Assembly: GCA_963747695.1 (NCBI GenBank)
Contig: CAVVFV010000010.1
Span: forward strand, 133,618 to 197,617
From: Candidatus Falkowbacteria bacterium
Lineage (GTDB): Bacteria > Patescibacteriota > Patescibacteriia > Patescibacteriales > WJLG01
DNA length: 64,000 bases
Direction of reading: 5' to 3'
The position numbers were made by a program, and so were the translations under genes. Below the pieces are notes generated by a model. The model ran no database searches, was not told where the DNA came from, and saw nothing but the letters and a program-made list of their open reading frames with translations. Shown here piece after piece: positions 10,529-57,405 of this stretch; the first letter of the stretch is position 1, and every line of letters starts with the position of its first letter.

Positions 10529-10535
10529 TTTTGTG

Positions 10536-10609
10536 TGGCGGGGGAGAGAATTGAACTCTCGACCTCGGCGTTATGAATGCCGTGCTCTAACCAGCTGAGC
10601 TACCCAGCC
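10536..10609 (-). tRNA. tRNA with CAT anticodon (elongator Met, or Ile2 if lysidine-modified), no encoded CCA
   Basis: Hand-folded to 74 nt: GGCTGGG/CCCCGCC acceptor (one U-C mismatch), TTCATAA anticodon loop, GAGAG-TTCAATT-CTCTC T arm. Confidence 0.8.
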
Positions 10610-10647
10610 AATGTTTTATCTTTTTTTTAGTTTTATAAAGAATATAT

Positions 10648-10698
10648 GCCGTGCTCCCTGTCCCGCTTCGGCGGGATAACCAGCTGAGCTACCCAGCC
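10648..10698 (-). pseudogene. Truncated 5' copy of the CAT tRNA (positions ~1-31) carrying a 20-nt GC hairpin inserted in the D loop
   Basis: GGCTGGGTAGCTCAGCTGGTTA-[TCCCGCCGAAGCGGGACAGG]-GAGCACGGC, then unrelated AT-rich sequence. No anticodon or T arm. Confidence 0.75.
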
Positions 10699-10703
10699 AA
10701 ATT

Positions 10704-10768
10704 CAATTAAAAGTTAAAAATGAAAAATTACAAATAATTTTTAATTTTGCATTTTTAACTTTTAATTG
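10704..10768. repeat. Perfect 19-bp inverted repeat (CAATTAAAAGTTAAAAATG / CATTTTTAACTTTTAATTG) around a 27-nt loop
   Basis: Read directly. Confidence 0.8.
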
Positions 10769-10771
10769 ACT

Positions 10772-10847
10772 TGGTGCGCCCGGCAAGGATCGAACTCGCA
10801 GCCTCTTGGTCCGAAGCCAAGCGCTCTATCCATTGAGCTACGGGCGC
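10772..10847 (-). tRNA. tRNA-Arg (anticodon TCG), CCA encoded
   Basis: GCGCCCG/CGGGCGC acceptor, CTTGG-CTTCGGA-CCAAG anticodon arm, GCGAG-TTCGATC-CTTGC T arm, ACCA end. Confidence 0.9.
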
Positions 10848-11575: not shown

Positions 11576-11647
11576 GTAATTTTTTACCTTGGCAGTAAGC
11601 CCGTCCAGAACCACCCCCAAACCCCTCCTTCGAAAGGAGGGGAGCCA

Positions 11648-15837: not shown

Positions 15838-16227
15838 TTAAATTACGTCGGGCTTTTGTTTGGTTCTGCTTTTTACGAAATAACTCTCCAATCTTTCTTG
15901 ATAATATTCTTTTTCAGCCGAAGACATCATGACATCAATCAGCTTGTTCAATCTGGTTTCGAACAAATCCTCATAACCATAAAATTCCTTTTGGTCGTCA
16001 GAATTATCCCGATGCCCCAAAAACATTCCATCTTGACCGCGCAAATAACCAAGCGTATTTACCGCCGAAATTATCGCCGGCATCTGCCAGGCCAAATCAT
16101 GCAAATTTTCCTGTTTTTTGGCGCGATCTTCGCCATCGACGAGCTGTTCATCAAGTAAAGTGGCGAATTTTCTGACAAATTCCGCGTACTCTTCACTCGT
16201 GGCGATCTTTCTTAATTGAATGTCCAT
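15838..16227 (-). CDS. Hypothetical protein (129 aa)
   Basis: Clean ORF between a terminator and an AT-rich upstream region. No family recognised. Confidence 0.55.
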   Translation of the reverse strand: MDIQLRKIATSEEYAEFVRKFATLLDEQLVDGEDRAKKQENLHDLAWQMPAIISAVNTLGYLRGQDGMFLGHRDNSDDQKEFYGYEDLFETRLNKLIDVMMSSAEKEYYQERLESYFVKSRTKQKPDVI

Positions 16228-17582: not shown

Positions 17583-17661
17583 TGTCATTCCCGCGAAGGC
17601 GGGGATCCAGAATCGTTCGTAATGGATAATTTTACTGGATTCCCGCCTTCGCGGGAATGAC
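17583..17661. repeat. TGTCAT-terminated palindromic mini-element, family A (27-bp inverted arms TGTCATTCCCGCGAAGGCGGGGATCCAG / CTGGATTCCCGCCTTCGCGGGAATGAC)
   Basis: Read directly. Ends 5 nt before the rnhB ATG. Confidence 0.8.
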
Positions 17662-29224: not shown

Positions 29225-29287
29225 TGTCGGGAATAGACCCTCCCCGCCTCGCAGGGCTCGGCACCCCTCCCGAGGAGGGGACTTTTT
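29225..29287. repeat. CCCCTC-hairpin element (family E) abutting the ftsH stop codon
   Basis: GTCGGGAATAGACCCTCCCCGCCTCGCAGGGCTCGGCACCCCTCCCGAGGAGGGGAC. An inverted copy lies at 34422-34513. Confidence 0.75.
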
Positions 29288-31118: not shown

Positions 31119-31128
31119 ATTTATTATA

Positions 31129-31208
31129 TGGCTATATTGCTATATTGTTATATTGTTAAGCGATTTAAATCGTTGCGTAACAATATGACAATATGACAAT
31201 ATAACAAT
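31129..31208. repeat. ATATTG-octamer palindromic element 10 nt upstream of the ftsH start
   Basis: TGGCTATATTGCTATATTGTTATATTGTT-AAGCGATTTAAATCGTTGCG-TAACAATATGACAATATGACAATATAACAAT. Confidence 0.8.
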
Positions 31209-33215: not shown

Positions 33216-34394
33216 CTATTTGATAAACATCGCGTCGCCATAACTGTAAAACCGATATTTTTTCTTAATCGCCTCTCGATAGGCGCGATCGATATTTTTC
33301 TTGCCGGCCAAAGCGGAAACTAACATCAATAAAGTCGATTTGGGCAGATGGAAATTGGTGATCATAGCATCGACGATCTTGAATTTATATCCCGGATAAA
33401 TAAAAATATCCACCCAATCCTTGAAGCCGCGTAGGCCCGCAATACTTTGCGGGCAGGCTTTTTCCTGCCAGCAGGCTTCCAAACTTCTCGCGCTTGTCGT
33501 TCCCACGGCGATTATCCGTGACCGCGGAACGCAAGGTATTGCGTTCCTACGATTTATTTCCGCGATAACCTTACCAACTATCTCTACCCACTCGGAATGC
33601 ATTTTATGTTCCAAGATATTTTCCGTCTTCACCGGCGCGAAAGTTCCCATTCCGACATAAAGCGTAATTTCCAAAATCTTCACGCCTTTTTTCTTAATCT
33701 TCTTCAAAAGCTCCGGCGTAAAATGCAACCCAGCCGTCGGCGCCGCCACGCTGCCGGCCTTATTATTAGCAGCATATACGGTTTGGTATTCTTGTTTGTC
33801 TTTTTCAATGATTCTCTCTTCTCTCTTATCTTTTCTCTGATTCTCTATATACGGCGGCAGCGGCACTTCGCCGATCTTTTCAATCGCTTTCATCAGCGCC
33901 GCGCCGGATTTATTGAATTGCAAATCCCAAGTACCATCATGATTATTCTTTAAAATGACGGCTGTCATCCTGAGCGGAGCGTCAGCGGAGTCGAAGGACC
34001 CCTTCGAAATTTTAGAAACTTTAAGTGGTTCCTCGACTTCGGCCGTGGCGGCCTTCGCTCGGAATGACAGATGTAAATTTTCGCTCACCCGGCCACCCAG
34101 TAAACACTGCCAAGTATTCGCGCTCAATTTTTTATGCAATAAAACTTCAACTTTCCCGCCGGTTTCTTTTTTCTTCGCCCACAGCCGCGCCGGAATGACT
34201 TTGGAATTATTCAATACCAAAATATCGCCCGGATTCAAATAATCGATGATATCAAAAAAATGCTTATGTTCGATCTTGCCCGTCTTCTTGTCCAGCACTA
34301 AAAGCCGCGAACTGTCTCGCGGCTCAGCCGGATGCGTGGCGATCAATCCATCCGGCAAATTAAAGTCGTAATCACTCAACTTCACGTAACGCAT
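33216..34394 (-). CDS. queA: S-adenosylmethionine:tRNA ribosyltransferase-isomerase, about 50 aa longer than typical because of in-frame repeat insertions
   Basis: YDFNLP..LIA..P...RD.SRLLV..; PLPPYI; GSVAAPTAGLHFT; IIAVGTTSARSLE; NFHLPKSTLLMLVSA. Confidence 0.9.
   Translation of the reverse strand: MRYVKLSDYDFNLPDGLIATHPAEPRDSSRLLVLDKKTGKIEHKHFFDIIDYLNPGDILVLNNSKVIPARLWAKKKETGGKVEVLLHKKLSANTWQCLLGGRVSENLHLSFRAKAATAEVEEPLKVSKISKGSFDSADAPLRMTAVILKNNHDGTWDLQFNKSGAALMKAIEKIGEVPLPPYIENQRKDKREERIIEKDKQEYQTVYAANNKAGSVAAPTAGLHFTPELLKKIKKKGVKILEITLYVGMGTFAPVKTENILEHKMHSEWVEIVGKVIAEINRRNAIPCVPRSRIIAVGTTSARSLEACWQEKACPQSIAGLRGFKDWVDIFIYPGYKFKIVDAMITNFHLPKSTLLMLVSALAGKKNIDRAYREAIKKKYRFYSYGDAMFIK
33963..34069. 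mobile_element. TGTCAT-terminated palindromic element (family B relative) inserted in frame inside queA
   Basis: TGTCATCCTGAGCGGAGCG..GTCGAAGGACCCCTTCGAA..GGTTCCTCGACTTCGGCC..GCCTTCGCTCGGAATGACA. Same termini and core as the intergenic copies at 55762-55871 and 56413-56523. Translated as ..RAKAATAEVEEPLKVSKISKGSFDSADAPLRMTA.. Confidence 0.75.
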
Positions 34395-34421: not shown

Positions 34422-34513
34422 AAAATCCCCTCTTGCCTGCCCCGCAAAGCGGAAGTGTGCGTGGGGGAGGGGTGACTCGCGCCGCGAGACGGGGAGGGTC
34501 TATTCCCGACATT
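34422..34513. repeat. Family E element (inverted relative to 29225-29287) between queA and the nuclease-like gene
   Basis: ..CCCCTCTTGCC..GGGGGAGGGGTGACTCGCGCCGCGAGACGGGGAGGGTCTATTCCCGAC. Confidence 0.7.
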
Positions 34514-36672: not shown

Positions 36673-36680
36673 GTTTCGTT

Positions 36681-36752
36681 AATGTTATATTGTTATATTG
36701 CTATATTGTTGCGCAACGAATTAAATAGTTTAACAATATAGCAATATAACAA
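36681..36752. repeat. ATATTG-octamer palindromic element filling the DUF4186-ruvB spacer
   Basis: AATGTTATATTGTTATATTGCTATATTGTT-GCGCAACGAATTAAATAGTTT-AACAATATAGCAATATAACAAT. Confidence 0.8.
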
Positions 36753-36753
36753 T

Positions 36754-37767: not shown

Positions 37768-40700
37768 TTATAATTTCCTAAATTCGCAAATGCCGTTGTA
37801 GTCGCAGAATTTGCATTGCTGGCCGGGGGTCGCCGGAAATTCTCCCTTGCGGATCGCGCGGATAGTTTCAGAAATCTTTTCATCAAGCTTGGCGAAATCT
37901 TTTTCCTTGCCTAAAAATTCTATCTCGCTATTATCATTCAAATAGCGATAACAAAGCGCGCCGACTTCCTGACGGAATAATTCTTTCACGGCTTGCTGGT
38001 AAATCAATAATTGCGCTTTTTCATTGAATTCCAATTTCTCTTTGGGCTTGCCGGTTTTGTAATCAACAATCTTCAGCCTGCCATCGGGCATTTCGTCGAT
38101 GCGGTCTATTTTTCCGGCGATGGTGATCCCCTCGCCATCGATCTTCATTCGCAGGGCGAAAGCTTTTTCCAGAAACAGGACTTTCGGCCAATTATTTTTA
38201 TATTCTTCATAAAAAGCCTTGGTCATCTCTCTGCCTTTCTCGTGATATTTTTTCTTGTTGGCTTCGGTTTCATACCATTCGTCGATCCACGATTCTTCAT
38301 AAATTTTCAGGCAATCTTCCAGAGAAAGTAACACACCCCGGCCTTCGGCCACCACTCTTGATAGAGGGGAATTTTCTTTTTTATCAGCCGGAGAGACAAA
38401 TAAACTATCCTGCTTTTTTTCGCCGGCTTCTTTTACGGTTTGAAGGATTTTCTGCAAAGTTGAATGCATGGTCTTGCCGAAGGACATCTGGAAATTGCCG
38501 CGTTTGGGAACTCTTAAGATATTATCAAACCGATATTGATACGGGCAGCGTTCGTAAGCTTCAAATTGGGAATAGGAAAATCTTTCCGGCGCTTGAGGTA
38601 CCCAACTCCGCTCCGTGGCGGAGCTTCGCTGGGCAAGTCCGGCAATTTTTAATTTCTTTCCGCGCAACATTGAATTCTTATCTTCCAGCGGTTCGACCGC
38701 TTTTTCATCGGCATTGCTGATATCCAAATCTTCGGCTAATTTAGTTTCGACTAAAAATCTTGAAGCGCGTCGTTCGCGTTTCCCGCCGGCATCCGACGAC
38801 CAGGAAAAATAAATCCCTTTTTTGGCACGAGTAATCGCCACGTAAAACAACCGCCGTTCTTCTTCCAAGTGATGGTCGCCAGCGGGGATTATCTCGTCGA
38901 GCAAAGCATCAGGAATCTTGATTGACTCAGAACGCTCAATCGATGGAAATCGCTTATCGATTAAATTTATGACAAAAACGTATTTGAATTCCAAACCTTT
39001 GGCGGCGTGCACGGTCATGATTTTGATCATCGCCGGGTCTTCTTCGTCGCTCAAAGGCAATGTCCCCTGCTCGCCGGCTTCCATCTCGACCGCTAGTCCG
39101 GCCAAAAATTCCCGCACTGATTTATCGGTCGAGCTGGTCTCAAATTCCTTGATCCGCTTCATGAATTGATTAAGCTGGTTAGTCGCCAAAATCTGCTGCC
39201 GCTCCGGCTGGGCATATAGATATTTCAAATACCCGGTGTCTTCGAGAAAATCCGAAAATATTTCCGAGGCCGGTTTATAGCGCGCATCCGCGGCGTGCTT
39301 GCGGAAAATTGCCAAAAATTTGTTGATCTTTTCCAAGGTTGCGCTGCCCAAACCCAGCGCTGAAGCTTCATTCAAGACTTTATAGAGCGACATGGCTTTG
39401 CGCGAAACGATATAATTCATCGCCGCCAATTCTTCGGCGGTAAAATTGAAAACCGGCAAAGTCAAAACTTTATACAAAGCCACGCCGTCATATTGGTCGG
39501 CCACGGCAGTCAGATAACTGATTGAATTGATAATCGGTATTGCCGCGTAAAGTCCGCGAGAAGAAAATAATTTATAAGGAAACTGCGCCTCGTCCAGATA
39601 GACGCAAATTTCCTTGCCCGCGTCATTAGATCTAGCCATAATCGCAAAGTCTCCCCAATTCGCCTCTTTGTCCTCAGTTTTTAGTTCGGCAATTTTCTTG
39701 ACCACCCGAACCATCTCATCGGCGGTATCGGCGCCGCGAATCACTTCAATCGAACCAGCATCTTTAAAATTCGCTTTTAATTTCTTAGATAATTTATCAC
39801 CGTCGTTCTTCAATTGCTCCTCTAGGCGGTTGGGATTATTCAATTTGATAAAATCATAGGCCAGATCCAAAATATTCTGCCGGTTGCGGTAATTCTCAAT
39901 CAAAAAAACCTGTTTGGCGTCAGGGTAATCTTTTTTGAATTCCAAAATATTGGCCATGGCCGCGCCGCGGAAGCGGTAGATCGCCTGGTCATCGTCGCCG
40001 ACGACCGTAATATTATTTTGCGGGGCAGCCAATAATTTCACCAGTTCATATTGCGCCCAATTCGTATCCTGGAATTCATCGACTAGAATATATTTGAACC
40101 TGGTTTGATAGCGCGCCAACACATTCGGCCGCTCGCGGAAAAGCTTAAGGCAATAATTGATCAGATCGCCAAAGTCCAGCGCATTATTTTCCAACAATAA
40201 ATTTTGGTAGATATGAAAAGCATTGGCCACTTCCTCAATCTTTTTAACTTCGAATTCCGCCACTTCCTGATCGAATTCACCTTTGGCATTAAGAAAATCT
40301 GCCGTAGGCGCGCAATGCTTCGTGGGTCCGCAATGCTTTGCGTACCGGTCTTCTTCACTGCTTTTCGGAACGCAAGGTATTGCGTTTCTACGTCCGCTTA
40401 GCATCCCGTCCAGATTCTGCCGCAGCTCTTCGGCATATTCCAAATATTTCAACGGCGTGATGTCTTCGTCTTTGCAACGGGAAAAATGCTTGAGCAAGTC
40501 GCGGATGAATTTGGTCGGGTTGCCCATCGGCCGATAATAATCCAGGCCGAACCGGTCCAGATGTTTCTTGAACAAAGCATACTGCTGATATTCGTCGAGC
40601 AATTTATAATCGGTCGGCAAACCGATATCTAAACCGGCTTCAGTCAAAACATCCTGGCAGAAAGAATGGAAAGTGGAAATCGACAAATCAAAAAAAGCGC

Positions 40701-40935
40701 CATAAGGCAACAGCCGATCAACGCGTTCCTCCATTTCGCCGGCCGCTTTTTCGGTAAACGTCAACGCTAAAATCTCTTCGGACTTGGCTTTGCCCGAGTC
40801 GATCAAACCGACGATCCTCTCTGAGATTACGCTGGTCTTGCCTGTGCCAGCGCCGGCCACGATCAATAATGGCCCTTCACCAAACTGAACCGCTTCGGCT
40901 TGCTCTTTATTTAATTGGTTTTTCTTCATTTCCAT
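37768..40935 (-). CDS. UvrD/PcrA-type superfamily-1 helicase fused to a C-terminal PD-(D/E)XK (Cas4/AddB-like, 4-Cys) nuclease domain
   Basis: GAGTGKT, LVDEFQDTN, VGDDDQAIYRFRGA, TVHAAKGLEF, YVAITRAK. C-terminus: CPYQYRF..DRID..VDYKTGK..CKFCDYNGIC. Confidence 0.85.
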   Translation of the reverse strand: MEMKKNQLNKEQAEAVQFGEGPLLIVAGAGTGKTSVISERIVGLIDSGKAKSEEILALTFTEKAAGEMEERVDRLLPYGAFFDLSISTFHSFCQDVLTEAGLDIGLPTDYKLLDEYQQYALFKKHLDRFGLDYYRPMGNPTKFIRDLLKHFSRCKDEDITPLKYLEYAEELRQNLDGMLSGRRNAIPCVPKSSEEDRYAKHCGPTKHCAPTADFLNAKGEFDQEVAEFEVKKIEEVANAFHIYQNLLLENNALDFGDLINYCLKLFRERPNVLARYQTRFKYILVDEFQDTNWAQYELVKLLAAPQNNITVVGDDDQAIYRFRGAAMANILEFKKDYPDAKQVFLIENYRNRQNILDLAYDFIKLNNPNRLEEQLKNDGDKLSKKLKANFKDAGSIEVIRGADTADEMVRVVKKIAELKTEDKEANWGDFAIMARSNDAGKEICVYLDEAQFPYKLFSSRGLYAAIPIINSISYLTAVADQYDGVALYKVLTLPVFNFTAEELAAMNYIVSRKAMSLYKVLNEASALGLGSATLEKINKFLAIFRKHAADARYKPASEIFSDFLEDTGYLKYLYAQPERQQILATNQLNQFMKRIKEFETSSTDKSVREFLAGLAVEMEAGEQGTLPLSDEEDPAMIKIMTVHAAKGLEFKYVFVINLIDKRFPSIERSESIKIPDALLDEIIPAGDHHLEEERRLFYVAITRAKKGIYFSWSSDAGGKRERRASRFLVETKLAEDLDISNADEKAVEPLEDKNSMLRGKKLKIAGLAQRSSATERSWVPQAPERFSYSQFEAYERCPYQYRFDNILRVPKRGNFQMSFGKTMHSTLQKILQTVKEAGEKKQDSLFVSPADKKENSPLSRVVAEGRGVLLSLEDCLKIYEESWIDEWYETEANKKKYHEKGREMTKAFYEEYKNNWPKVLFLEKAFALRMKIDGEGITIAGKIDRIDEMPDGRLKIVDYKTGKPKEKLEFNEKAQLLIYQQAVKELFRQEVGALCYRYLNDNSEIEFLGKEKDFAKLDEKISETIRAIRKGEFPATPGQQCKFCDYNGICEFRKL

Positions 40936-48158: not shown

Positions 48159-49265
48159 TTATATGTCCAATTCTTTTAAAGCCTCTTTTTGTTTCTTGTT
48201 CAAATTTTTCGGCGTCCTGATGATTACTGTTACCAGATGATCCCCTTTCGTGCGCCCATCTTGATATTGCACGCCCTTATTTTTCAATTTAAAGACCGTG
48301 CTCGATTGCGTGCCTTCGGGGATTTTCAATTCGACCGGCCCGTAAACCGTTTCAATCTCAACCTTGGCGCCCAAAGCCGCTTGGGAAAAATTAATTTCTT
48401 TTTTAGTTAAGATATCATAATCATCGCGCGCGAATTTGTCACTCGGCTTCACTCTGATTTCCAAATACAGATCGCCGGCGCTGGCGCCTTTTTCGCCAGC
48501 CTCGCCATATCCGGGAATCCGGATGCGGCCGCCATTGTCCACGCCGGCCGGAATCTTCACTTTGAATTTTACCGTATCGTAAACCGTTCCCGCGCCGCGG
48601 CAAGCTTCGCATTTCTGGGAAACGGTTTTGCCTTCGCCGCCGCAATTCGGGCAGGAGGTTTCGGTCTGGATATTTCCTAAAATCGTTTGTTGAACTCGGC
48701 GGACGCGGCCGTGCCCTTTGCAAGTCGGACATTCTTCAACCTTCGCATTCGGGTGAGCGCCGGAACCATTACATTCTTTACAGACGACCTTTTTCTTCAG
48801 CGTGACTTCTTTCTCGACGCCGAAAATGGCTTCCATAAAATCAACCGTCATTTGCGCTTCGATATCCTGGCCGCGCTGCGTCCGCCCTCGTCCGCCTCTG
48901 GCGGAGCGGGATGAACCAAAACCAAATATATCTCCTAGTCCGCCGAACATTTCGCCCAGATCGCCCAAGTCATCCATATTGATATTCATTCCGCCATTCT
49001 GAAAACCGCCGAAGCCTCCATAACCTCCCTGACCAGGATTAAACCCTCCGGCGCCGTTGAAATTCGCACCGAATTGATCGAATTGTTTTCTCTTTTCCGG
49101 ATTCCCCAAAACCTGATAAGCTTCATTGATCTCCTTGAACTTATCGTCTTTGCCCGCGTTCTTGTCCGGATGATATTGATGCGCCAATTTCAAAAACGCC
49201 TTCTTGATCTCGTCGGCGGAGGCCGTTTTTTCTACACCTAAAATCTTATAATAATCTTTAGACAT
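48159..49265 (-). CDS. dnaJ: Molecular chaperone DnaJ
   Basis: J domain with HPD (YHPDKN), G/F region, four CxxCxGxG zinc motifs. Confidence 0.95.
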
Positions 49266-49447
49266 GTTTATTTAAAAATGATAGATGATAAATGATAGAT
49301 GATAAATTTCTTAACATTATTTATCACTTATCATTTATTATTAATCATTGATACAACCTATTGCTTTTTTTATTAATTTATGTTATACTATTTAGACGTT
49401 CATTTGAAATTAATTAGCCATAAAATCCAATCAACGAAAGGATTGCC

Positions 49448-49708
49448 ATGTACCCAGCACCCCTGACAAAAGAAGAATCTGCGGAGAATATCAAGGTGAT
49501 GTTCAGATGGTTCAAGGTCATGATCATTTTGGCCAATCTCGCGGCCATCGCCATCGCCATTACCGACAACCAGGATCTTCCTGAACTCAGCTCCAAAATA
49601 TTTTGCTGCATCCTCGGCGTCGGTATCCCGTGGCTTGCCTTCATGGTCTGCAAATTCATGATCGACAACCAGACCGAACAAGAGCAAACAGGAACCAAAC
49701 AATCCTAA
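49448..49708 (+). CDS. Small membrane protein (86 aa, two TM segments)
   Basis: AAAGGA SD upstream. Own terminator. Confidence 0.5.
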   Translation: MYPAPLTKEESAENIKVMFRWFKVMIILANLAAIAIAITDNQDLPELSSKIFCCILGVGIPWLAFMVCKFMIDNQTEQEQTGTKQS

Positions 49709-49732
49709 CAAACATTTTTTCGATCACCAGAG

Positions 49733-49764
49733 CGCCTCTAAGGAAAAGAGGCGTTTTTATTTTG
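49733..49764 (+). terminator. Intrinsic terminator
   Basis: CGCCTCT-AAGGAAA-AGAGGCG followed by a T-run. Confidence 0.7.
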
Positions 49765-49765
49765 C

Positions 49766-50053
49766 TTAGGCTTTGAATCCGATCTCCTTATTCAATTCTT
49801 CCGCTTCCTTGATCTTGCCGAATTTGGCTTCATAATCTTTCAACGCTTTTTCCATCACCGCGATCATCCGTTTATAATGTCCGGGGTTGGAAATTATCTT
49901 CGCGACCACGCGGCCGTTCTGCCCGACCAGATTGAAAAACGGCAAAGTGAATTCATCCTTATTAAAGACGACTTGCATCGCGTTGGTATACTCCCCGCCC
50001 GGAATGTTGTCGGCGATCTTAATTTCCACCGGCTTAGTTTGATTGGGTCCCAT
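49766..50053 (-). CDS. DUF3467-like protein
   Basis: GGEYTNAMQVVFNKDEFTLPFF pattern, recalled from the family. Confidence 0.55.
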   Translation of the reverse strand: MGPNQTKPVEIKIADNIPGGEYTNAMQVVFNKDEFTLPFFNLVGQNGRVVAKIISNPGHYKRMIAVMEKALKDYEAKFGKIKEAEELNKEIGFKA

Positions 50054-50078
50054 AGTATTAAGAATTATAAATTATAAA

Positions 50079-50651
50079 TTACAAATTATAAATTTTTAAT
50101 CGATTCTTAAATTCTTTCAAACTTTTCACCCCGCCCTTTAAAACCGCTTCGTATATTTTAAAGCCGGCGATTATAATCTTGTTATCATTCCTGAATTTTT
50201 TTAACGCGAGAATCAGCTCTCTCTGCCGATCGGAAATTTTTTTCCAGAAAACGATGCTGGCTTTCGTCCTTCTGGCAAATTCCTTTTCGTCCATGAACCA
50301 AACATCGATCGTCCAGGTTTCGCCGGCGAATCTGGTTTTCATGCCGAGATAATGGCCATTAGGAAATTCTTTGCCCATTCTGGGATCATCCCATTTACCG
50401 CCGATAAAATAACTCTTGAATTTATTCTGCCAATAAAGCCGGTTGAATATCCGTAAAACTTCCTGCCTGGAATATTTTTTTGCTCTCGTCACCTCCAGAT
50501 CAATATCGCCGTGCATCATCAAACCAAGCGAATAGGCGCCGACCAAATGCACCTGGCCGAATTTTGCCAAATCCTTGATCAGTCCGGTCTTGGTCAGTAA
50601 ATTATCGGCTTGATTTTTATATTTTCGGCTGATTCGGGTAAGTTTTGACAT
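50079..50651 (-). CDS. Nucleotidyltransferase-fold protein (putative)
   Basis: HLVGAYSLGLMMHGDIDLEV resembles the G[SG]..D.D minimal NTase motif. AT-rich. Confidence 0.45.
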   Translation of the reverse strand: MSKLTRISRKYKNQADNLLTKTGLIKDLAKFGQVHLVGAYSLGLMMHGDIDLEVTRAKKYSRQEVLRIFNRLYWQNKFKSYFIGGKWDDPRMGKEFPNGHYLGMKTRFAGETWTIDVWFMDEKEFARRTKASIVFWKKISDRQRELILALKKFRNDNKIIIAGFKIYEAVLKGGVKSLKEFKNRLKIYNL

Positions 50652-50660
50652 AGATATTTA

Positions 50661-50712
50661 ATTCCCCTCTTGGGAGGGGTGTCTGCCCCGCACGGACGGG
50701 GTGGGTTTATTG
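50661..50712. repeat. Family E element
   Basis: TTCCCCTCTTGGGAGGGGTGTCTGCCCCGCACGGACGGGGTGGGTTT. Confidence 0.7.
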
Positions 50713-50719
50713 TCTTTCA

Positions 50720-51469
50720 TTATTTAAAAAACTTTTTTATCTTCCGCCAGAATTGCGGCTTGATCGAGTTGCGAGCGGAAAGATGACCGCCCTTCTTTAA
50801 ATATAGGTGTTGGCAGCCAAGGTCTTTAACGAACTTTTTCACTGATGGCGTACTGATAAGCTTATCGTCATTAGCTTGAATTATGAAAATATTTTTGGCG
50901 TTCAATTTTTTTACGACCGAAGCCGGATTATATATTTTACCTTCTTCTAATTTTTTCCAATCGCGGTGATCAAACCGGTATCCTTCGCCGAAGGCCGCAC
51001 GGGTGAATTTTTCCAGCCAAGGCATCGGTTCGATTTTACTATGCACTTCTTCGCGCCAATCAACCACAGGCGAAAACGCCACGGCCTTTTTAACTTTCGG
51101 ACTCTGCGAGGCCAAGATGACCGCCGGTCCGCCGAAACTTGAACCGATCAAATAAACCTGCGGCTTCTTTATCTGCAAAACTTTGCCGCTCCACAAATCC
51201 TTAAAACCTTTCGGCAGTTCTTCAATAATATCCAAGATATCCTGATGCGGTGACACTCGCAAAAACTTTCCGCCGCTCTCCCAGGTCCCGCGATATCTCG
51301 GCAAGAACGCCCAATAGGCTCGCTTAGCCAGCCAAAAAAGCATTTCATCACTTCTGCCCGGATAGCCAGGCATGCCGCCGCAAACAATCACCACCTTATT
51401 CGATCTCTTCTTAGGAGCAACAAACTCGCAGATAATATCTTTCTTAATTCTAGTTCTCAATGTATACAT
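50720..51469 (-). CDS. Alpha/beta hydrolase (dienelactone hydrolase / peptidase S9-like)
   Basis: Nucleophile elbow GSSFGG. The start was moved to ATG 51469 (MYTLRT) because the track's N-terminal 43 aa read through a family E repeat. Confidence 0.75.
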   Translation of the reverse strand: MYTLRTRIKKDIICEFVAPKKRSNKVVIVCGGMPGYPGRSDEMLFWLAKRAYWAFLPRYRGTWESGGKFLRVSPHQDILDIIEELPKGFKDLWSGKVLQIKKPQVYLIGSSFGGPAVILASQSPKVKKAVAFSPVVDWREEVHSKIEPMPWLEKFTRAAFGEGYRFDHRDWKKLEEGKIYNPASVVKKLNAKNIFIIQANDDKLISTPSVKKFVKDLGCQHLYLKKGGHLSARNSIKPQFWRKIKKFFK

Positions 51470-51477
51470 AAATTTAA

Positions 51478-51524
51478 GTCCCCTCTTGAGAGGGGTGGCC
51501 GAAGGCCGGGGTGTGTGAAGATTT
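51478..51524. repeat. Family E element (reverse orientation) directly 3' of the DUF559 gene
   Basis: CCCCTCTTGAGAGGGGTGGCCGAAGGCCGGGGTGTGTGAAGATT. Confidence 0.75.
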
Positions 51525-51947
51525 TCAAAGGCGCGGACTATTTTTACCCATCCAATCCTTAATCTCCTCGACAATCGCCCAACGGGCATTTTTAACATTG
51601 CTATCTGTAAACCGCAAGAATCTTATTCCCAATTTTTCCAATTCCCTCTGGCGAATTTCATCTTCAATTTCTTTATATCCGTGCGAATCACCATCGATCT
51701 CGATCGCCAGCCGCAATTCGTCGCAGAAAAAATCGACAATATAATTTCCCATTGGCTTCTGCCGGTGAAAATTATAACCGCGGATTTTTCTCTGTTTCAA
51801 CTCCTGCCAAAGCAGTATTTCGGCCAAGGTGCTATGTTTTCTCAAATTACGCGCCAGCTGTTTCAATTTTGGATCGTATTTGATCAATAATTTTGTTTTT
51901 CTTATCCCCCTCCTTATTAATAAATTATATTTCCCGCCGCTTCCCAA
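51525..51947 (-). CDS. DUF559 (Vsr-like PD-(D/E)XK) endonuclease-domain protein; start codon uncertain (TTG in track)
   Basis: LRKHSTLAEILLWQELK..GYNFHRQKPMGNYIVDFFC..LAIEIDGDSH..R...L...G...LRF. Confidence 0.8.
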   Translation of the reverse strand: MGSGGKYNLLIRRGIRKTKLLIKYDPKLKQLARNLRKHSTLAEILLWQELKQRKIRGYNFHRQKPMGNYIVDFFCDELRLAIEIDGDSHGYKEIEDEIRQRELEKLGIRFLRFTDSNVKNARWAIVEEIKDWMGKNSPRL

Positions 51948-52083
51948 TCTTCACACACCCCGTCAGTCCGCGGCGGACTGCCACCCCTCTCTAGAGGGGA
52001 CTTTTTCCGACGCCGGTTTCTTCGTTGCGAAGTCCCCTCTGGAGAGGGGTGCCGAGCCCGGCGAGGCGGGGTGTGTGAAGATG
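51945..52083. repeat. Two family E elements in head-to-head arrangement (51945-52005 forward, 52030-52083 reverse)
   Basis: AATCTTCACACACCCCGTCAGTCCGCGGCGGACTGCCACCCCTCTCTAGAGGGGAC ... AAGTCCCCTCTGGAGAGGGGTGCCGAGCCCGGCGAGGCGGGGTGTGTGAAGAT. Confidence 0.8.
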
Positions 52084-52105
52084 TTATTTGCGACAAAATG
52101 ATTTT

Positions 52106-54013
52106 TTACTTCTTTTCTTGGTATTCTCCTTCAACCGGACCCTGTTCATCTTTCTTCGCTTCTCCGGCGTTAGGTTGTTCGGCACCCGGAGCTCCGGCAC
52201 CCGGCTGACCCGCTTGTGATTGGTACATCTTCGCGCCGATCGATTGCGCGAGCTGATTCATTTCTTCCAATTTTTTCTTGATCGCCTCGGTATCCGTGCC
52301 GTCCTTGATCTTTTTCAGATCTTCGACATGATCGGTTAAAGTCTTGATATCTTCCGGCGACATTTTGGCGCCCATATCTTTGATCAATTTTTCCGTCTGG
52401 AAAATCACACCCTCGGCTTGATTTTTCAGATCAATGCTTTCCTTTTTCTTCTTGTCATCCTCGGCATGCAGTTCGGCTTCTTTCTTCATCTTCTCCACTT
52501 CTTCCTTGGATAAACCAGAGGAAGCAGTGATGGTGATCTTCTGCTGTTTATTGGAAGCTTTGTCGGTCGCGGAAACATTCAAGATGCCGTTGGCGTCGAT
52601 ATCAAATTTAACTTCAACTTGCGGGACACCGCGAGGAGCCGGCGGAATGCCGTCGAGCATAAATCTGCCCAAAGTTTTATTATCAGTCGCCATTGGCCGT
52701 TCGCCTTGGAGAATATGGATTTCGACGGAAGTCTGGCCATCAGCCGCGGTCGAGAAGACCTGGGATTTCTGTGTCGGGATGGTGGTGTTGCGTTCGATCA
52801 ATGGAGTGGACACGCCGCCCAAAGTCTCAATGCCCAAAGTCAAAGGCGTCACATCAAGCAACAAGATATCTTTCACTTCGCCTCTTAAAATACCGCCTTG
52901 CACGCCGGCGCCAGCCGCCACGACTTCATCCGGATTGACTGACATATTCGGGTCTTTCTTGAAAAAATCTTTAACCAGGGCTTGCACCATCGGCATGCGA
53001 GTCTGGCCGCCGACCAAAACGACTTCTTGCAGATCTTCAACTTTCATTCCCGCGTCAGCCAAAGCTTTTTTGCAAGGCTCGATAGTTTTCTGCACCAAAT
53101 CGCCCACCAATTCTTCCAATTTCGCGCGAGTCATTTTTTTCACCAAATGCTTCGGACCTTCCGCGCCGACAGTAATGAAAGGCTGATTGATTTCGGTTTC
53201 CATCGCGCTCGACAATTCGATCTTGGCTTTTTCGGCCGCTTCCTTGATGCGCTGCAAAGCCAGCGGATCTTTGGACAAGTCCACGCCGTTCTCGCGCTTG
53301 AAATCATCCAAAATCCAATTGATGATGCGCTGATCAAAATCCGCGCCGCCCAAATGCGTATCGCCGTTGGTGGCTTTCACCATCACGCTGTCGCCGGAAA
53401 CATCCAAAATGGAAACATCGAAAGTTCCGCCGCCCAAATCGTAGACCACGATCTGATGGCCTTGCTTCTTGTCCATACCGTAAGCCAAAGCGGCCGCGGT
53501 CGGTTCGTTGATAATTCTTTTCACATCTAGCCCAGCTATCTGGCCGGCATCTTTGGTCGCCTGTCTTTGCGAATCGTTGAAGTAAGCCGGCACGGTGATG
53601 ATCGCTTCGGTGATGGTTTCGCCCAAACGCGCTTCGGCATCAGCTTTTAATTTTGACAAGATCTTGGCGGAAATTTCCTGCGGAGTATATTCTTTGCCGG
53701 AAATGATGATCTTCACGCCTTCGCCGGCCTGCACGATCTTGAACGGCATATTCTTGAGGTCGCGCTGAACTTCGGCATCATTGAAATGACGGCCGATCAA
53801 ACGCTTAACTTCAAAAATCGTGTTCTCCGGATTAGTGACGGCTTGCCGTTTCGCTGAAGCGCCCACCAGCCATTCGCCGGATTTGGAAATCGCGACGATG
53901 GACGGAGTAGTTCTCATGCCTTCCGAATTTTCTAAAATTTTCGGCTGCCCGCCTTCGACGATCGCCATCGCGGAGTTAGTTGTTCCTAAGTCGATTCCTA
54001 GTATTTTACTCAT
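52106..54013 (-). CDS. dnaK: Molecular chaperone DnaK (Hsp70)
   Basis: [17 protein letters not shown], full substrate-binding domain and lid. Confidence 0.97.
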
Positions 54014-54044
54014 AGATTTTTTTATTAAATTAATTTTTATAAAA

Positions 54045-54284
54045 CTAAATTTTACCCTGTTTTATATTCATCTTCTCCCTTGCAGTTAAAGTTTTTGAAT
54101 CCGGACATTTATCTTTTAAAATTTTCATTATTCCTTTTAATTCATCAATGACTTCCTTAGAAAGACAGGCTTCGGATTGAATATTTTCGTTTGAATTTAA
54201 ATTTTGAATCCTTGAATGAATTCCTGCTTTAAGCTCGCGATATTTTTTTATTAATTTTTCACAATCATTATTTTGATTTTCCAT
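54045..54284 (-). CDS. Small hypothetical protein (79 aa), AT-rich
   Basis: Begins 3 nt after the upstream gene's stop codon. No family recognised. Confidence 0.5.
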
Positions 54285-54287
54285 AAT

Positions 54288-55061
54288 TTATTTTTTAGCT
54301 CTGGCAGAGTCTTGCCCTAAGGACTCCGACGAGGCCAATTTTTTAGATTCTTCCCACGTTTTATTAATTTCTTTTTGGCGTAATTTCTTTAATTCCGCGG
54401 AATCGCAATAATCACCGCCAAGCTGATCTTTAAAACGTTTTTCTATTTCTTCCATTCTTATATATAACTTTTCTCTTGCGTAAAGGTGCTCTTGTCCATC
54501 CTCTCTAGATAAATAATTTAATATTTCCATCTCGTGAACAACATCTCCTAATACATCCATGTAGTCAGTCCAGTCTTTAACCACCCTATCAAGCAATGTT
54601 TTATCATGTTTAAAGCGTTCGCTAAGGCGAATAAAGTTTTTTTTACCACAATCAAACGAAGCAATCTCTATTCCGTTTTGTTCACCATCTTTCAAATCCC
54701 TTGTTTTTATTTTATTTAAAAGAAAACTTTCCTTTTGTTCAATTTCGGCTCGTACATCTTCGTTAGCTCCGTCAGAGGCTTCCTCCACAGACCCCGATGA
54801 TATCAAACGCTGCTTAATTTTTCCTTTTTTACCATACACTAGTAATTTATAAATTTTATATGTCAGAAAAGCTGAGCCAAAAGCCCCAATTAAAATTGCT
54901 GCCGAATTTACATCAGAATATACTCTGGCATTTTCCGAAATATGTATTCCAATCATATTTAATACTAAAGTCGTGATCAATGCCACGATAAATTTAATCA
55001 CTTGGTAAAAAATTATTAATGTAAAAAAACCAATTACAAATCCTAAAATTTTTTTTCCCAT
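54288..55061 (-). CDS. Hypothetical membrane-anchored protein (257 aa; two N-terminal TM segments and a charged helical C-terminal domain), AT-rich
   Basis: Hydrophobic segments FVIGFFTLIIFYQVIKFIVALITTLVL and AAILIGAFGSAFLTY. Confidence 0.6.
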   Translation of the reverse strand: MGKKILGFVIGFFTLIIFYQVIKFIVALITTLVLNMIGIHISENARVYSDVNSAAILIGAFGSAFLTYKIYKLLVYGKKGKIKQRLISSGSVEEASDGANEDVRAEIEQKESFLLNKIKTRDLKDGEQNGIEIASFDCGKKNFIRLSERFKHDKTLLDRVVKDWTDYMDVLGDVVHEMEILNYLSREDGQEHLYAREKLYIRMEEIEKRFKDQLGGDYCDSAELKKLRQKEINKTWEESKKLASSESLGQDSARAKK

Positions 55062-55129
55062 AGTTGTTAGTTCAAATTAATTAATTTTGGCTCTGACAGA
55101 GTCTCGCGGCTGCAGACTCTGCCAAGGCT

Positions 55130-55300
55130 GATCTTCACACACCCCGTCCGCGCGGCGCGGCCACCCCTCTCAAGAGGGGAATTTTACTTGTCATTGCGAG
55201 CGCCTCGCGAAGCAGTCTCGCCCTGACTGCGTCTGCTCTTGGGCAGGACATATTAGCCGCGAGGCGCGGGTTTGCTTCGTCGCTAATCGCTCCTCGCATA
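55130..55300. repeat. Composite of a family E element (55130-55186) and a TGTCAT-terminated element of the GCGAGCG type (55189-55300)
   Basis: GATCTTCACACACCCCGTCCGCGCGGCGCGGCCACCCCTCTCAAGAGGGGAA, then TGTCATTGCGAGCGCCTCGCGAAGCAG..CCGCGAGGCGCGGG..CGCTCCTCGCA. Confidence 0.7.
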
Positions 55301-55314
55301 TGTGTTATGTTTTT

Positions 55315-55749
55315 TTATTTCTTCTCAATCTTAATATTTTTTACGACCTGTTCGGTTCCCGCTTCGGAATACTGAATTTTCAAGATGCCGGACTCGGAAA
55401 TGGCCGAGGCTCTGTCGCCGTCCACATGAGCCGGTAACGGAATGGAACGGAAGAATGAGCCGCGGCGGATTTCTTTGCGGTAATAATCTTTATCTTCCAC
55501 CTCGCTTTTCTTTTCGCTTTCGCCCTTGATCGTCAACACATCATTTTCGATGGCGATGGAAACTTTTTCCGGATCGATTCCGGCTAATTGCGTTTCGACA
55601 ATTAAATTACCGCCATCCTCATATATATCCACGGCTGGGACAAAGCCGGCGGAATCGGTGCGGCGCACCATCGGCACGAATTCAGAGAACATCTTGTCCG
55701 TATCATCGAACCCGTCGAAGAACGGACTCCACTTGATTAAATTGCTCAT
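55315..55749 (-). CDS. Hsp20/alpha-crystallin family small heat-shock protein
   Basis: VDIYEDGGNLIVETQLAGI..VSIAIENDVLTIKGE..F.RSIPLP..V....A....GIL.I. Confidence 0.9.
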   Translation of the reverse strand: MSNLIKWSPFFDGFDDTDKMFSEFVPMVRRTDSAGFVPAVDIYEDGGNLIVETQLAGIDPEKVSIAIENDVLTIKGESEKKSEVEDKDYYRKEIRRGSFFRSIPLPAHVDGDRASAISESGILKIQYSEAGTEQVVKNIKIEKK

Positions 55750-55761
55750 ATTTTTTTACAT

Positions 55762-55871
55762 TGTCATTCCGACCGAGCACGCCGCGTGCGAGCGGAGGAA
55801 CCGCTTCGAGTTATTTAAAACTTTAAGGGGTCCTTCGACTGCGGCCGAGGCGGCCTTCGCTCAGGATGACA
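55762..55871. repeat. TGTCAT-terminated palindromic element, family B, filling the grpE-hsp20 spacer
   Basis: TGTCATTCCGACCGAGCACGCCGCGTGCGAGCGGAGGAACCGCTTCGAG..CTTTAAGGGGTCCTTCGACTGCGGCCGAGGCGGCCTTCGCTCAGGATGACA. Confidence 0.85.
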
Positions 55872-55885
55872 AAAAAAATAAATTA

Positions 55886-56401
55886 TTACTCTAGAACTAC
55901 GCGGGCGGCACGGATTACTTTGCCGTTTAATTTATAGCCGGTCATAATCTCTTTCGCGACTTTTTCGCCGGTGCCTTCGACCGCTTCCATTTCGGCCGGA
56001 TTGAATTTCTCGCCGATCGTTTTTATCTCATCAACGCCATTCACGCTCAGTAAATCTTTAAATTGCTTCACGGTATATTCCACGCCCTTCACCCAGGCGC
56101 TGGCCTTTTCAGCTTCCGGCAAAGATATGATGGATAATTTCAAATGATCGTAGACCATCAAAAATTCCGATAGAACTTCCTGATTGGCATATTTCACGAA
56201 TTCATCCTTTTCGATCGATTGCCGTTTGATCAGATTCTGTTCTTCCGCCAGCACGCGCAAATACTTATCATTGGCGTCTTTCAATTCGGTTTCCAAACGC
56301 AGAATTTTTTCATCAGCAGTTTCTTCCTGCGGTGCAATTTCTTCATTATTTTTTCCCTTGTCCTCCGTATCTTTAGCGGAGGAGGATTTTTCTTCTGACA
56401 T
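55886..56401 (-). CDS. grpE: Nucleotide exchange factor GrpE
   Basis: Coiled-coil N-terminus, YLRVLAE.QN..KR, C-terminal beta domain GYKLNGKVIRAARV. Confidence 0.9.
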   Translation of the reverse strand: MSEEKSSSAKDTEDKGKNNEEIAPQEETADEKILRLETELKDANDKYLRVLAEEQNLIKRQSIEKDEFVKYANQEVLSEFLMVYDHLKLSIISLPEAEKASAWVKGVEYTVKQFKDLLSVNGVDEIKTIGEKFNPAEMEAVEGTGEKVAKEIMTGYKLNGKVIRAARVVLE

Positions 56402-56412
56402 ATTTAATCTTC

Positions 56413-56523
56413 TGTCATTCCGACCGAACGCGCCGCGCGTGAGCGGAGGAACCGCTTCGAGTTTTTTAAAAACTTTAAGGGGTCCTTCGACTGCGGCCGC
56501 GGCGGCCTTCGCTCAGGATGACA
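56413..56523. repeat. TGTCAT-terminated palindromic element, family B, filling the hrcA-grpE spacer
   Basis: About 95% identical to 55762-55871 by eye. Confidence 0.85.
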
Positions 56524-56532
56524 AAATAATTT

Positions 56533-57231
56533 TTAACTTTTAACTTTTAACTTATTTAAAATATACTCAACTAGCGACAGATTCCGTTCGTAGTCCATCC
56601 GCATCGGGCCGAGGATGCCGAACAAGCCGGATTGATTGCCGCGTTTGTATTTGGCAAGGATCGCGCCGCAGAAATTGCCGAACGGATTTTCTTCGCCGAT
56701 CATAATTTGCGCTTCGGTGCCGGTCTTTTCAAAAATATTATCGATAATCTCGTCCATCCGGTCGATCACGGCGGATACATTATATACCAAGCCGCTGTTC
56801 AAGAATTCCGGCTGCTGAAAAAGATTGGATAATCCAGTGTAATAAAGATTATTTTTGTGGAAAGCCCAGAACACAGCGGAATCGGTCAGCGCCGCCAAAG
56901 TCTTGGCCGTGTCGCGCATCGCTCCCTCGTCCGAATCACCCAAAGCAATATCTAATTCCTGCAAATCTTTATCTTTGATTTTCTTCGCTTTTTTCTTGCC
57001 GATCACTTCCGCTAAATATAATTTATAGGCGGCTTCGGTGGGAACGCGGCCGGCGGAAGTGTGAGGCTGGCGGATAAATCCTTCCTCTTCCAGTTCCGCC
57101 ATAATATTGCGCACGGTCGCCGAAGAGCAATCCAGTTTATATTTCTCCACCAAATTCGAAGACCCGACCGGTGCGCCGGTCGAAATATGTTCTTTAATGA
57201 TGGCTTCAAGAATTTGTTTTTTCCGATCCAT
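56533..57231 (-). CDS. hrcA: Heat-inducible transcription repressor HrcA (short form, 232 aa)
   Basis: Winged-helix N-terminus ILEAIIKEHISTGAPVGSSNL..SSATVRNIMAELEEEGFI.QPHTSAGRVPT. A CIRCE operator lies upstream. Confidence 0.85.
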   Translation of the reverse strand: MDRKKQILEAIIKEHISTGAPVGSSNLVEKYKLDCSSATVRNIMAELEEEGFIRQPHTSAGRVPTEAAYKLYLAEVIGKKKAKKIKDKDLQELDIALGDSDEGAMRDTAKTLAALTDSAVFWAFHKNNLYYTGLSNLFQQPEFLNSGLVYNVSAVIDRMDEIIDNIFEKTGTEAQIMIGEENPFGNFCGAILAKYKRGNQSGLFGILGPMRMDYERNLSLVEYILNKLKVKS

Positions 57232-57366
57232 AGTTTTTCGCTTCGCTCGGCCGCACTACTGATGCGGCGCATACGAATATTACGTAATGTTGATCTACGA
57301 ATGCATCCAAATCACTAAATTAATGTTCGAGTCATTCAGCTTCGCTCGTAGATTGGAATTATTATC

Positions 57367-57396
57367 ATAATACTTTATTTAGCACTCAGGTGTCAA
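57367..57396 (-). promoter_or_regulatory. Probable hrcA promoter: the -35 TTGACA lies in the CIRCE spacer, followed by an 18-nt spacer and -10 TATTAT
   Basis: Read on the minus strand: TTAGCACTCTTGACACCTGAGTGCTAAATAAAGTATTAT. Confidence 0.45.
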
Positions 57397-57405
57397 GAGT
57401 GCTAA
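57379..57405. promoter_or_regulatory. CIRCE operator (HrcA binding site), a perfect inverted repeat
   Basis: TTAGCACTC-AGGTGTCAA-GAGTGCTAA matches the consensus TTAGCACTC-N9-GAGTGCTAA exactly. Confidence 0.9.

Follow-up and report, generated by a model that had tools for sequence, protein, structure and literature searches.

A Patescibacteria heat-shock operon probably colonised by nuclease-associated hairpin repeats

The heat-shock operon analysed here lies in a 64,000-nucleotide stretch of a Candidatus Falkowbacteria contig (CAVVFV010000010.1, positions 133,618 to 197,617), hereafter the window, where the genes from hrcA to dnaJ are interspersed with additional genes and palindromic sequences. 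This is probably an ordinary Patescibacteria dnaK operon which has been colonised by repeats resembling MITEs (transposable elements of the miniature inverted-repeat kind) and linked to nuclease genes. Two independent processes would have enlarged it from ~5 kb to ~9 kb. One would be the insertion of lineage-specific, co-directional genes into two tolerant gaps, hsp20/dnaK and dnaK/dnaJ, and the other the colonisation of intergenic gaps by two small selfish hairpin repeat families, here termed E and B/TGTCAT. Family E is associated with genes for DUF559 nucleases and B/TGTCAT with genes for GIY-YIG nucleases.

Family E is a two-hairpin module of ~45–55 nucleotides (nt), in which a tail (ACACACCCCG) is followed by a variable GC-rich hairpin and then by a conserved hairpin (CACCCCTCT-NN-AGAGGGGAATT). 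Written in full, the conserved end reads CACCCCTCT-NN-AGAGGGGA(A/C)TT, and the ends of the module are ACACACCCCG/GAGGGGAATT and GAGGGGA(A/C)TT. By chance, 0.03 occurrences of the core motif would be expected. Five copies lie in the operon: 55131–55183 (plus strand, antisense to the operon, after hsp20), 52030–52082 (minus strand, sense, just after dnaK and the first half of an inverted doublet), 51946–52003 (plus strand, antisense, the second half of the doublet and at the same time the upstream inverted repeat of the DUF559 gene), 51476–51523 (minus strand, sense, 56 bits, forming the inverted repeat downstream of the DUF559 gene) and 50660–50708 (minus strand, sense, after a hydrolase gene). 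The last is a CCCACCCCG...CACCCCTCCC sub-variant with a relative just before dnaJ in the related locus L001 (18190–18238).

A sixth canonical copy (38329–38373, plus strand; 37 bits, E-value 2e-08) lies in frame within a UvrD/PDDEXK_1 helicase-nuclease gene (37768–40935, minus strand), where it encodes the 15 residues NSPLSRVVAEGRGVL / ...ENSPLSRVVAEGRGVL.... This copy was found with a covariance model, together with diverged E-like modules at 29235–29284 (plus strand), 34425–34510 (minus strand) and 11607–11646 (plus strand), and the idea that E occurs only in the heat-shock locus was dropped. Two of the diverged modules share a GGGAATAGACCCTCCCCG tail, and one is short and lacks the variable hairpin, like the short form which flanks the DUF559 gene in locus L211.

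The sequence of the variable hairpin differs from copy to copy, with its pairing kept. Across 139 distinct copies with 103 distinct middles, the variable segment forms 3.41 consecutive Watson–Crick pairs versus 1.48 ± 0.07 after shuffling. Covariation was 0.161 against 0.044 ± 0.014 (23 copies, ungapped), none of 500 shuffles being as high, and two positions showed compensatory changes; the second hairpin is fixed by the search pattern and is uninformative on covariation. Of 64 loops counted in the variable hairpin, 51 are TNC triloops, which led us to drop their interpretation as UNCG RNA tetraloops, and most read GNA on the complementary strand. GNA loops are very stable in single-stranded DNA.

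An exact-pattern scan detected E in at least 120 metagenome stretches (GC content 32–70% in the 80 measured) and in 11 stretches of viral contigs, as singlets, inverted (forward-reverse) doublets and tandem arrays. Short-read assemblies of this strain in public databases stop within an E copy or no more than ~70 nt from one, as expected of a multi-copy repeat. No Rfam family corresponds to E or B: three tRNAs alone reached the gathering score in the 64 kb, and nothing credible was found at E-values of up to 5 between 49000 and 57600. Searchable literature yielded no description of E or TGTCAT elements. Both occur across several phyla, namely the candidate phyla radiation (CPR), Bacteroidota, Ignavibacteriota and Nitrospirota, plus one GC-rich contig, and they appear to be two widespread, undescribed families of nuclease-associated hairpin repeats.

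The gene bounded by E on both sides in the operon (51525–51947, minus strand; start codon uncertain) encodes a DUF559 protein (Pfam, 8.6e-30), by family a Vsr-like PD-(D/E)XK endonuclease with an intact DF...EIDG motif, and 120 amino acids (aa) long in the public gene call (P0072). E or a variant is directly adjacent to the DUF559 gene at ten out of ten loci examined (the window, L001, L128, L130, L147, L205, L208, L209, L211 and L213). Seven of these were found via the protein (L205 by chance, beside a GIY-YIG gene) and L128, L130 and L147 via the E pattern. Their hosts include a CPR bacterium (L208), Ignavibacteriales (L209), Thermodesulfovibrionia (L211) and the isolate Runella defluvii (L213), and L205 is a GC-rich contig. 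At most loci the gene has E in inverted orientation on either side; in L130, L147 and L213, E was observed upstream only. The longest flanking repeats are those of L128 (78-nt arms, 91% complementary) and L208 (55-nt arms, 96% complementary, with the same 'variable' hairpin). DUF559 genes have been found enriched among predicted inversion targets (odds ratio 14; PMC9881135), which we attribute to the inverted repeats flanking such genes. Conversely, only three of the 120 listed metagenome stretches found through E contain a DUF559 gene. Each gene with repeats and few repeats with a gene is an asymmetry which matches that of repetitive extragenic palindromic (REP) elements and the genes of REP-associated tyrosine transposases (RAYTs).

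Family B elements are 107–117 nt long in the window (93–150 nt in the B/TGTCAT family overall) and have inverted TGTCAT ends. Each folds into a single long hairpin (-49 to -57 kcal/mol, z between -3.9 and -5.6). Copy 1 (56413–56529; TGTCAT...ATGACA ends, -55.7 kcal/mol, z = -5.1) fills the hrcA/grpE gap, and copy 2 (55762–55877), 93% identical to it, occupies the grpE/hsp20 gap. A third TGTCAT element in the operon (55190–55303) has one degenerate end and belongs to a TTGCGAG subfamily, as does the element in the hrcA/grpE gap of L001; the same operon gaps are filled by different TGTCAT subfamilies in the window and in L001. B copy 3 (33963–34069) lies in frame within queA (33216–34394, minus strand). 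The window QueA has 392 aa versus 345–347 aa in solved QueA proteins, and ~29 B-encoded residues (RAKAATAEVEEPLKVSKISKGSFDSADAP) are missing in homologues of 52–62% identity (alignment; library of 1.8 billion proteins). The closest homologue (P0214) has the same insertion and a second B-like insertion ~60 residues further on. Terminal inverted repeats around a small non-coding body, the long hairpin, and multiple copies (at least five family members in the window) with presence/absence differences at conserved sites are features of MITEs. A further TGTCAT-family element of a subfamily other than B (GTCATTCCCGCGAAGGCGGGGATC...GATTCCCGCCTTCGCGGGAATGAC) was observed at window positions ~17583–17661, just 5' of an RNase HII gene.

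In the grpE/hsp20 gap of L001, a GIY-YIG gene (Pfam, 1.5e-08) is bracketed by inverted TGTCAT half-elements and followed by 'empty' 150-nt copies. All the other GIY-YIG loci retrieved (L201/L203, L204 and the GC-rich L205/L206) have this bracket too, and many GIY-YIG homologues begin or end with peptides which are a translated TGTCAT half-element. The longer units with TGTCAT ends encode a GIY-YIG nuclease, not a recognised transposase. Judged by sequence, B is in all likelihood a mobile MITE-like element, the 'empty' form of a unit which carries a GIY-YIG gene elsewhere. One GC-rich contig (L205, at 339–689 and 3001–3315) holds both systems, a DUF559 gene with a variant E (ACCCCTCCG-hairpin-CACCTCCCCAGCG..CGCTGGGGAG) and a GIY-YIG gene with TGTCATCCCGAGC half-elements. 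Hairpin sequences appear to co-vary with nuclease lineage, as the L205 and L209 variants suggest.

A palindromic element surrounds each partner nuclease gene, DUF559 or GIY-YIG, with one half on either side. From this arrangement we infer that the nucleases may mobilise E and B, which they would do by copying of a homing/repair type or by transposition. It is possible, and we put it forward tentatively, that DUF559 and COG2827-type GIY-YIG nucleases are 'master genes' of the hairpin mini-elements E and TGTCAT, which would spread by nuclease-triggered copying without a conventional transposase; the conserved E hairpins would then be the recognition site. A different reading of the same anatomy takes E as a cis part of the DUF559 unit (its target, regulatory hairpins or ends), not independently mobile, with solitary copies as scars, and TGTCAT likewise for GIY-YIG. 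This would suit the presence of E beside every DUF559 gene examined, on both sides of most, its tight clustering around that gene in the window and L001, and the resemblance of 'empty' TGTCAT elements to a GIY-YIG unit minus its gene. However, among the matches listed in the metagenome sample, there are ~40 solitary copies for each one with a gene, and the commonest doublet is forward-then-reverse, where simple gene deletion would leave reverse-then-forward. Tandem arrays of up to five or more units (L112, L167) also occur, and the 45-nt in-frame copy in the helicase gene is hard to derive from gain and loss of a 400-bp gene. We consider this reading quite unlikely.

The history of the operon was followed in 80 related loci, fetched from species-representative genomes with HrcA as the anchor, onto 40 of which the window proteins were mapped. 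The nearest relatives by HrcA identity are L001 (78%), L003 (74%) and L002 (73%). Among the 40 Patescibacteria loci, at least 13 genomes hold a compact arrangement, hrcA-grpE-hsp20-dnaK-(DUF3467)-dnaJ, of 4.7–5.1 kb. The operon spans 9.1 kb in the window and 9.3–9.9 kb in L001–L003, and smaller expansions occur in other relatives. The initial annotation, an earlier reading of the window, was right to call the operon stretched, and the stretching is due to inserted co-directional genes, but hsp20 and DUF3467, which lie outside the canonical order hrcA-grpE-dnaK-dnaJ, are old members since they stand in the compact operon of relatives: ~34 of the 40 loci have hsp20 in the grpE–dnaK interval, and in 10 DUF3467 immediately precedes dnaJ. 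The position of DUF3467 immediately 5' of dnaJ was observed in L002, L003, L007–L010, L013, L015, L016 and the window. Its conservation there suggests that this small, uncharacterised protein has a role connected with chaperones.

Expansions occur almost always at hsp20|dnaK or dnaK|dnaJ and more rarely at hrcA|grpE, and the inserted genes vary by lineage. Those recognised by Pfam include GIY-YIG, HEPN and 23S rRNA-intervening-sequence proteins; reading of translations added a signal peptidase, NUDIX, MazG, CYTH, an AlaX-like protein, PurF, a nitroreductase and other hydrolases. Nearly all are co-directional with the operon. In the window, the hsp20|dnaK gap holds an AT-rich orphan pair and the dnaK|dnaJ gap holds the DUF559 gene, an alpha/beta hydrolase gene and a gene for a 190-aa protein. 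The 190-aa gene is common to the window and L003, at the same position; DUF559 and the hydrolase have counterparts in L001 alone (75% and 65% identity, respectively); the AT-rich pair and a convergent 86-aa gene are unique to the window genome among the relatives compared. These distributions suggest relative ages, with hsp20 and DUF3467 old, the 190-aa gene and DUF559 plus hydrolase intermediate, and the AT-rich orphan pair the most recent insertion.

The same comparison bears on whether tuning of the operon by their hairpins, through messenger RNA (mRNA) stability, processing or pausing, is the main reason why E and B are retained, with the nuclease link secondary. An E copy at the 3' end of dnaK is common to the window, L001 and L002, and the hrcA/grpE gap is taken up by a TGTCAT element in the window as well as in L001. 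Between the window and L123, the orthologous E copies after hsp20 share 96% identity and the same variable hairpin, and so are better conserved than the hsp20 coding DNA (86%). E also tends to lie downstream of a gene on the same strand (36 versus 15, from crude gene calls), and the folds are very stable. In Bacillus, according to a passage of PMC3446304 citing Homuth 1999, cleavage between hrcA and grpE releases the hrcA portion of the dnaK-operon mRNA, which is degraded faster. However, orthologous sites differ in the orientation of E, with a doublet after dnaK in the window and a single antisense copy there in L001 and L002, sister genomes hold different subfamilies in the same gap, and at least 13 relatives have gaps of 19–200 nt with no such elements. 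The in-frame copies in queA and the helicase gene and the tandem arrays in metagenomes have no operon-tuning logic. Selection by the host as the main reason for the repeats is therefore unlikely, and colonisation by selfish repeats remains the reading we prefer.

The initial annotation had proposed a cassette array, in which E and B would be recombination sites like the attC sites of integrons and promoterless genes would have been captured singly downstream of the CIRCE (controlling inverted repeat of chaperone expression) promoter. Its appeal is real: a pattern of one open reading frame (ORF) followed by an imperfect palindrome is repeated four to six times, the genes are co-directional and apparently promoterless, and there is a single CIRCE promoter with no convincing terminator between the inserted genes. 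However, no integrase (intI or other), recombinase or transposase domain was detected among the 59 ORFs of at least 90 aa checked in the 64 kb; Pfam covered all of these apart from dnaK, dnaJ and six more whose identity was established in other ways. The attC cores RYYYAAC and GTTRRRY are not found at the ends of E or B. Orientation and multiplicity of the elements are inconsistent, E being present in both orientations (three sense, two antisense) and as a doublet after dnaK. B lies between core genes which were never inserted (hrcA/grpE and grpE/hsp20), and both families occur inside coding genes, queA and the helicase gene. In L002 and L003, where inserted genes amount to 3–4 kb, E is present once or not at all and the junctions have no GC-rich palindromes. 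Among the 120 listed metagenome stretches found through E, the three with a DUF559 gene contrast with many copies which form doublets or tandem arrays without any gene between them. With its defining features absent in this way, the cassette-array reading is largely refuted, and we regard it as very improbable.

Nor is there a palindrome at almost every junction, as had been stated. Six of the 11 junctions from hrcA to dnaJ have a B, E or TGTCAT element, two have other hairpins and three have nothing. Enrichment of junction palindromes in the operon was rejected, strong hairpins (threshold -18 kcal/mol per 60 nt) occurring in 5 of 10 gaps inside the locus and 27 of 43 outside (Fisher p = 0.49). 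Many of the strong intergenic hairpins outside the locus are ordinary terminators, a hairpin followed by a T run.

Several points weigh against colonisation by nuclease-linked, MITE-like repeats. No target-site duplication was recognised for either family, and none was consistent at the four window B/TGTCAT copies. There are few canonical E copies, and they concentrate strongly in the operon (five of six in the window, six of six in L001, one of one in L002), which is unusual for a freely dispersing MITE and better fits local duplication or selection. This concentration could reflect seeding from the DUF559 unit, and the resident unit probably did seed the local E cluster, or it could reflect selection; the high conservation of the E copy after hsp20 relative to coding DNA (window versus L123) is likewise a hint of gene conversion or constraint. 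Those DUF559 loci which were fetched through the protein are few and come from the best matches to the window protein, which biases them to one subfamily, and the GIY-YIG sample is small, too. That DUF559 and GIY-YIG proteins move the repeats is an argument from anatomy only.

The gene order and orientations given by the initial annotation were confirmed, as were its positions for the CIRCE operator, the five E copies of the operon and the three B/TGTCAT palindromes: all genes from hrcA to dnaJ are on the minus strand except the 86-aa ORF. The operon begins with a promoter (57367–57405; -35 TTGACA at 57391–57396 and -10 TATTAT at 57367–57372, 18 nt apart) which overlaps a CIRCE operator (57379–57405; TTAGCACTC-N9-GAGTGCTAA, a perfect inverted repeat). 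Next are hrcA (56533–57231; Pfam HrcA, 1.8e-18; a short 232-aa form typical of the clade), grpE (55886–56401; Pfam GrpE, 4.3e-33) and hsp20 (55315–55749; Pfam HSP20). An additional imperfect hairpin (TTGGCAGAGTCT...AGACTCTGTCAGAGCCAA; 55085–55128), with a similar motif in L001 at 16010–16050, lies upstream of the AT-rich two-gene insertion (54045–55061), which comprises a 257-aa membrane/coiled-coil ORF (54288–55061) and a 79-aa ORF (54045–54284) with a GC content of 0.30–0.35 versus ~0.45–0.53 in the surroundings. Identified by translation and tblastn, dnaK (52106–54013) precedes the DUF559 gene, the alpha/beta hydrolase gene (50720–51469; Pfam), the 190-aa gene (50079–50651; a 53% identical homologue in L003) and DUF3467 (49766–50053; Pfam). 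The longest ORF of the hydrolase (50720–51598, minus strand, 292 aa) starts within the DUF559 gene and crosses an E copy, yielding ...HTPRPSATPLKRGLK..., and the real start is 51469; the false N-terminal extension is present in public gene calls, too (284 aa in L207). The convergent 86-aa membrane ORF (49448–49708, plus strand) has its own intrinsic terminator (hairpin 49729–49757 plus TTTTTATTTT; together 49448–49757). Directly 5' of dnaJ (48159–49265; translation and tblastn) is an AT-rich inverted repeat (49277–49349) with 31-nt arms, 84% complementary, and several promoter-like sites.

The CIRCE at 57379–57405 is the sole match in 64 kb with up to three mismatches allowed, which bears out the earlier claim of only one. 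No convincing terminator with a hairpin and T run was found on the operon strand from hrcA to DUF3467, where the three weak matches to the terminator consensus are one E hairpin and two sites within the coding sequence of the 257-aa ORF. Clear terminators of this kind are used elsewhere in the window, for instance near 5490, 8190, 22536 and 47688; E and B lack T runs and hence are not intrinsic terminators. The promoter with CIRCE would drive hrcA onward, and the inserted genes would be co-transcribed. With one HrcA-controlled promoter and no convincing terminator before the end of DUF3467, read-through is plausible, and the inserted genes are probably read through from the heat-shock promoter. 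The proposal that genes were inserted into a single CIRCE-controlled unit is thus supported in part: it is plausible as far as DUF3467, but dnaJ is separated from the rest by the convergent gene and the terminator belonging to it, and is preceded by an AT-rich promoter-like region of its own. B and E hairpins transcribed in the operon mRNA could, like REP elements, serve as decay barriers or processing sites.

Searches of Pfam, NCBIfam, PADLOC and PHROGs left five ORFs without a significant match, namely those of 257, 79, 190 and 86 aa (the last on the plus strand) and a 106-aa ORF below dnaJ. The 'NTase-like' label given earlier to the 190-aa gene finds no support in these databases. Its single-sequence AlphaFold model was poor (predicted local distance difference test score 49.6), with Foldseek matches at template-modelling scores of at most 0.29 (GAPDH/ArgC) which are meaningless, and the label stays unsupported. 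The 257-aa ORF is a near-orphan among 5.8 billion proteins, and the orphan pair has no significant match to defence systems or prophages in PADLOC or PHROGs. In exact look-ups, the DUF559 protein and the 257-aa ORF matched only short assemblies of the same strain (100% identical), and hsp20 had no match. The one informative homologue, a distant one of the C-terminal half of the 257-aa ORF (L214), was observed beside genes for an ImmA/IrrE-type peptidase, an XRE-type helix-turn-helix protein and an Mrr-like nuclease. There is a weak hint that the AT-rich pair may come from a mobile element.

Several other features of the window were recorded. AT-rich inverted repeats of short heptad-like units (AATGATAGATGATAAAT..., ATATTGTTATATTGCTATATTG...) are present at 49277–49349, 31119–31200 and 36673–36753, and in L003 at 6124–6201; they sit in promoter-proximal gaps and could be an operator or a further repeat family. 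Directly next to three tRNA genes (10334–10847), a unit of ~416 nt is repeated three times (9250–10333), each repeat consisting of a 94-aa ORF and a 130-nt spacer which includes a terminator and a tRNA-like 3' half (GGTTCGAATCC). Approximately 4 kb of sequence (~700–4900) have no long ORF despite a GC content of 50% and a coding-like GC skew, and within it tandem repeats of 273 nt (91 aa) at 1400–2245 carry in-frame stop codons at a conserved position. The region may represent a gene for a large repeat protein which has decayed or was assembled wrongly.

In a compact genome, small selfish repeats can survive only in intergenic gaps, and this by itself can produce a repeated 'gene plus palindrome' pattern; our result is a guard against over-reading such patterns, besides giving a dated history of a CPR heat-shock operon. 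The elements also break short-read assemblies and create false N- or C-terminal extensions in gene calls, as for the hydrolase ORF here. If the nucleases do mobilise the repeats, this would be a REP/RAYT-like system on different enzymes and would give a testable function for DUF559. Should the nucleases be master genes, the large DUF559 family would gain a function and a class of spurious peptide ends in annotated proteins (for example ...PLKRG..., ...QDDK and ...SFRAKA...) would be explained.

The locus can be set against several known systems. As in the HrcA/CIRCE-controlled dnaK operon of Gram-positive bacteria, hrcA is first, a perfect CIRCE lies on the promoter, and grpE, dnaK and dnaJ follow in canonical order. 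It differs in that this clade has hsp20 and DUF3467 as fixed additions, lineage-specific genes lie between dnaK and dnaJ, and dnaJ is cut off by the convergent gene. Integron cassettes are alike in the features which first suggested them, and unlike in the elements between core genes and inside coding sequences and in the relatives with inserted genes and almost no elements.

The palindromic elements of Rickettsia are said, in work attributed to Ogata et al. in 2000, to insert in frame into genes. B in queA, where the reading frame is kept, and E in the helicase-nuclease gene (45 nt, 15 codons) behave in the same way, as do the MITEs of Coxiella described in a passage of PMC5896051. Here, however, the lineage is a CPR one of free-living type and there is a candidate partner gene (GIY-YIG or DUF559), and the likeness meant is one of insertion habit. 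Homing endonucleases share the nuclease folds (GIY-YIG enzymes such as I-BmoI, PMC3161791; a Vsr-like PD-(D/E)XK group I intron enzyme, in a passage of PMC3424549). They are likewise small selfish genes between or within host genes, and a gene amid its palindromic 'target' is what homing predicts. By contrast, there is no intron or intein context here, and classical homing does not yield hundreds of gene-less copies.

The REP/RAYT systems, or 'REPtrons' (PMC3116915, PMC2817692, PMC3733652), differ in the partner protein, which is an IS200/IS605-type HUH tyrosine transposase, whereas E flanks the gene of a Vsr-like PD-(D/E)XK DUF559 protein and B that of a GIY-YIG protein, and no Y1 transposase domain was found in the window ORFs checked. 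E also lacks the GTAG tag of REP elements, has CGTC in some copies only, within the variable hairpin, consists of two hairpins of which the first is sequence-variable, and has a low, locally clustered copy number in the window. In other respects the likeness is close: the elements are short GC-rich hairpins, mostly extragenic, which occur as singlets and as inverted doublets of the kind called REPINs; one protein gene is flanked by inverted copies of the repeat; empty copies far outnumber those with a gene; and the repeats are probably transcribed as part of an operon.

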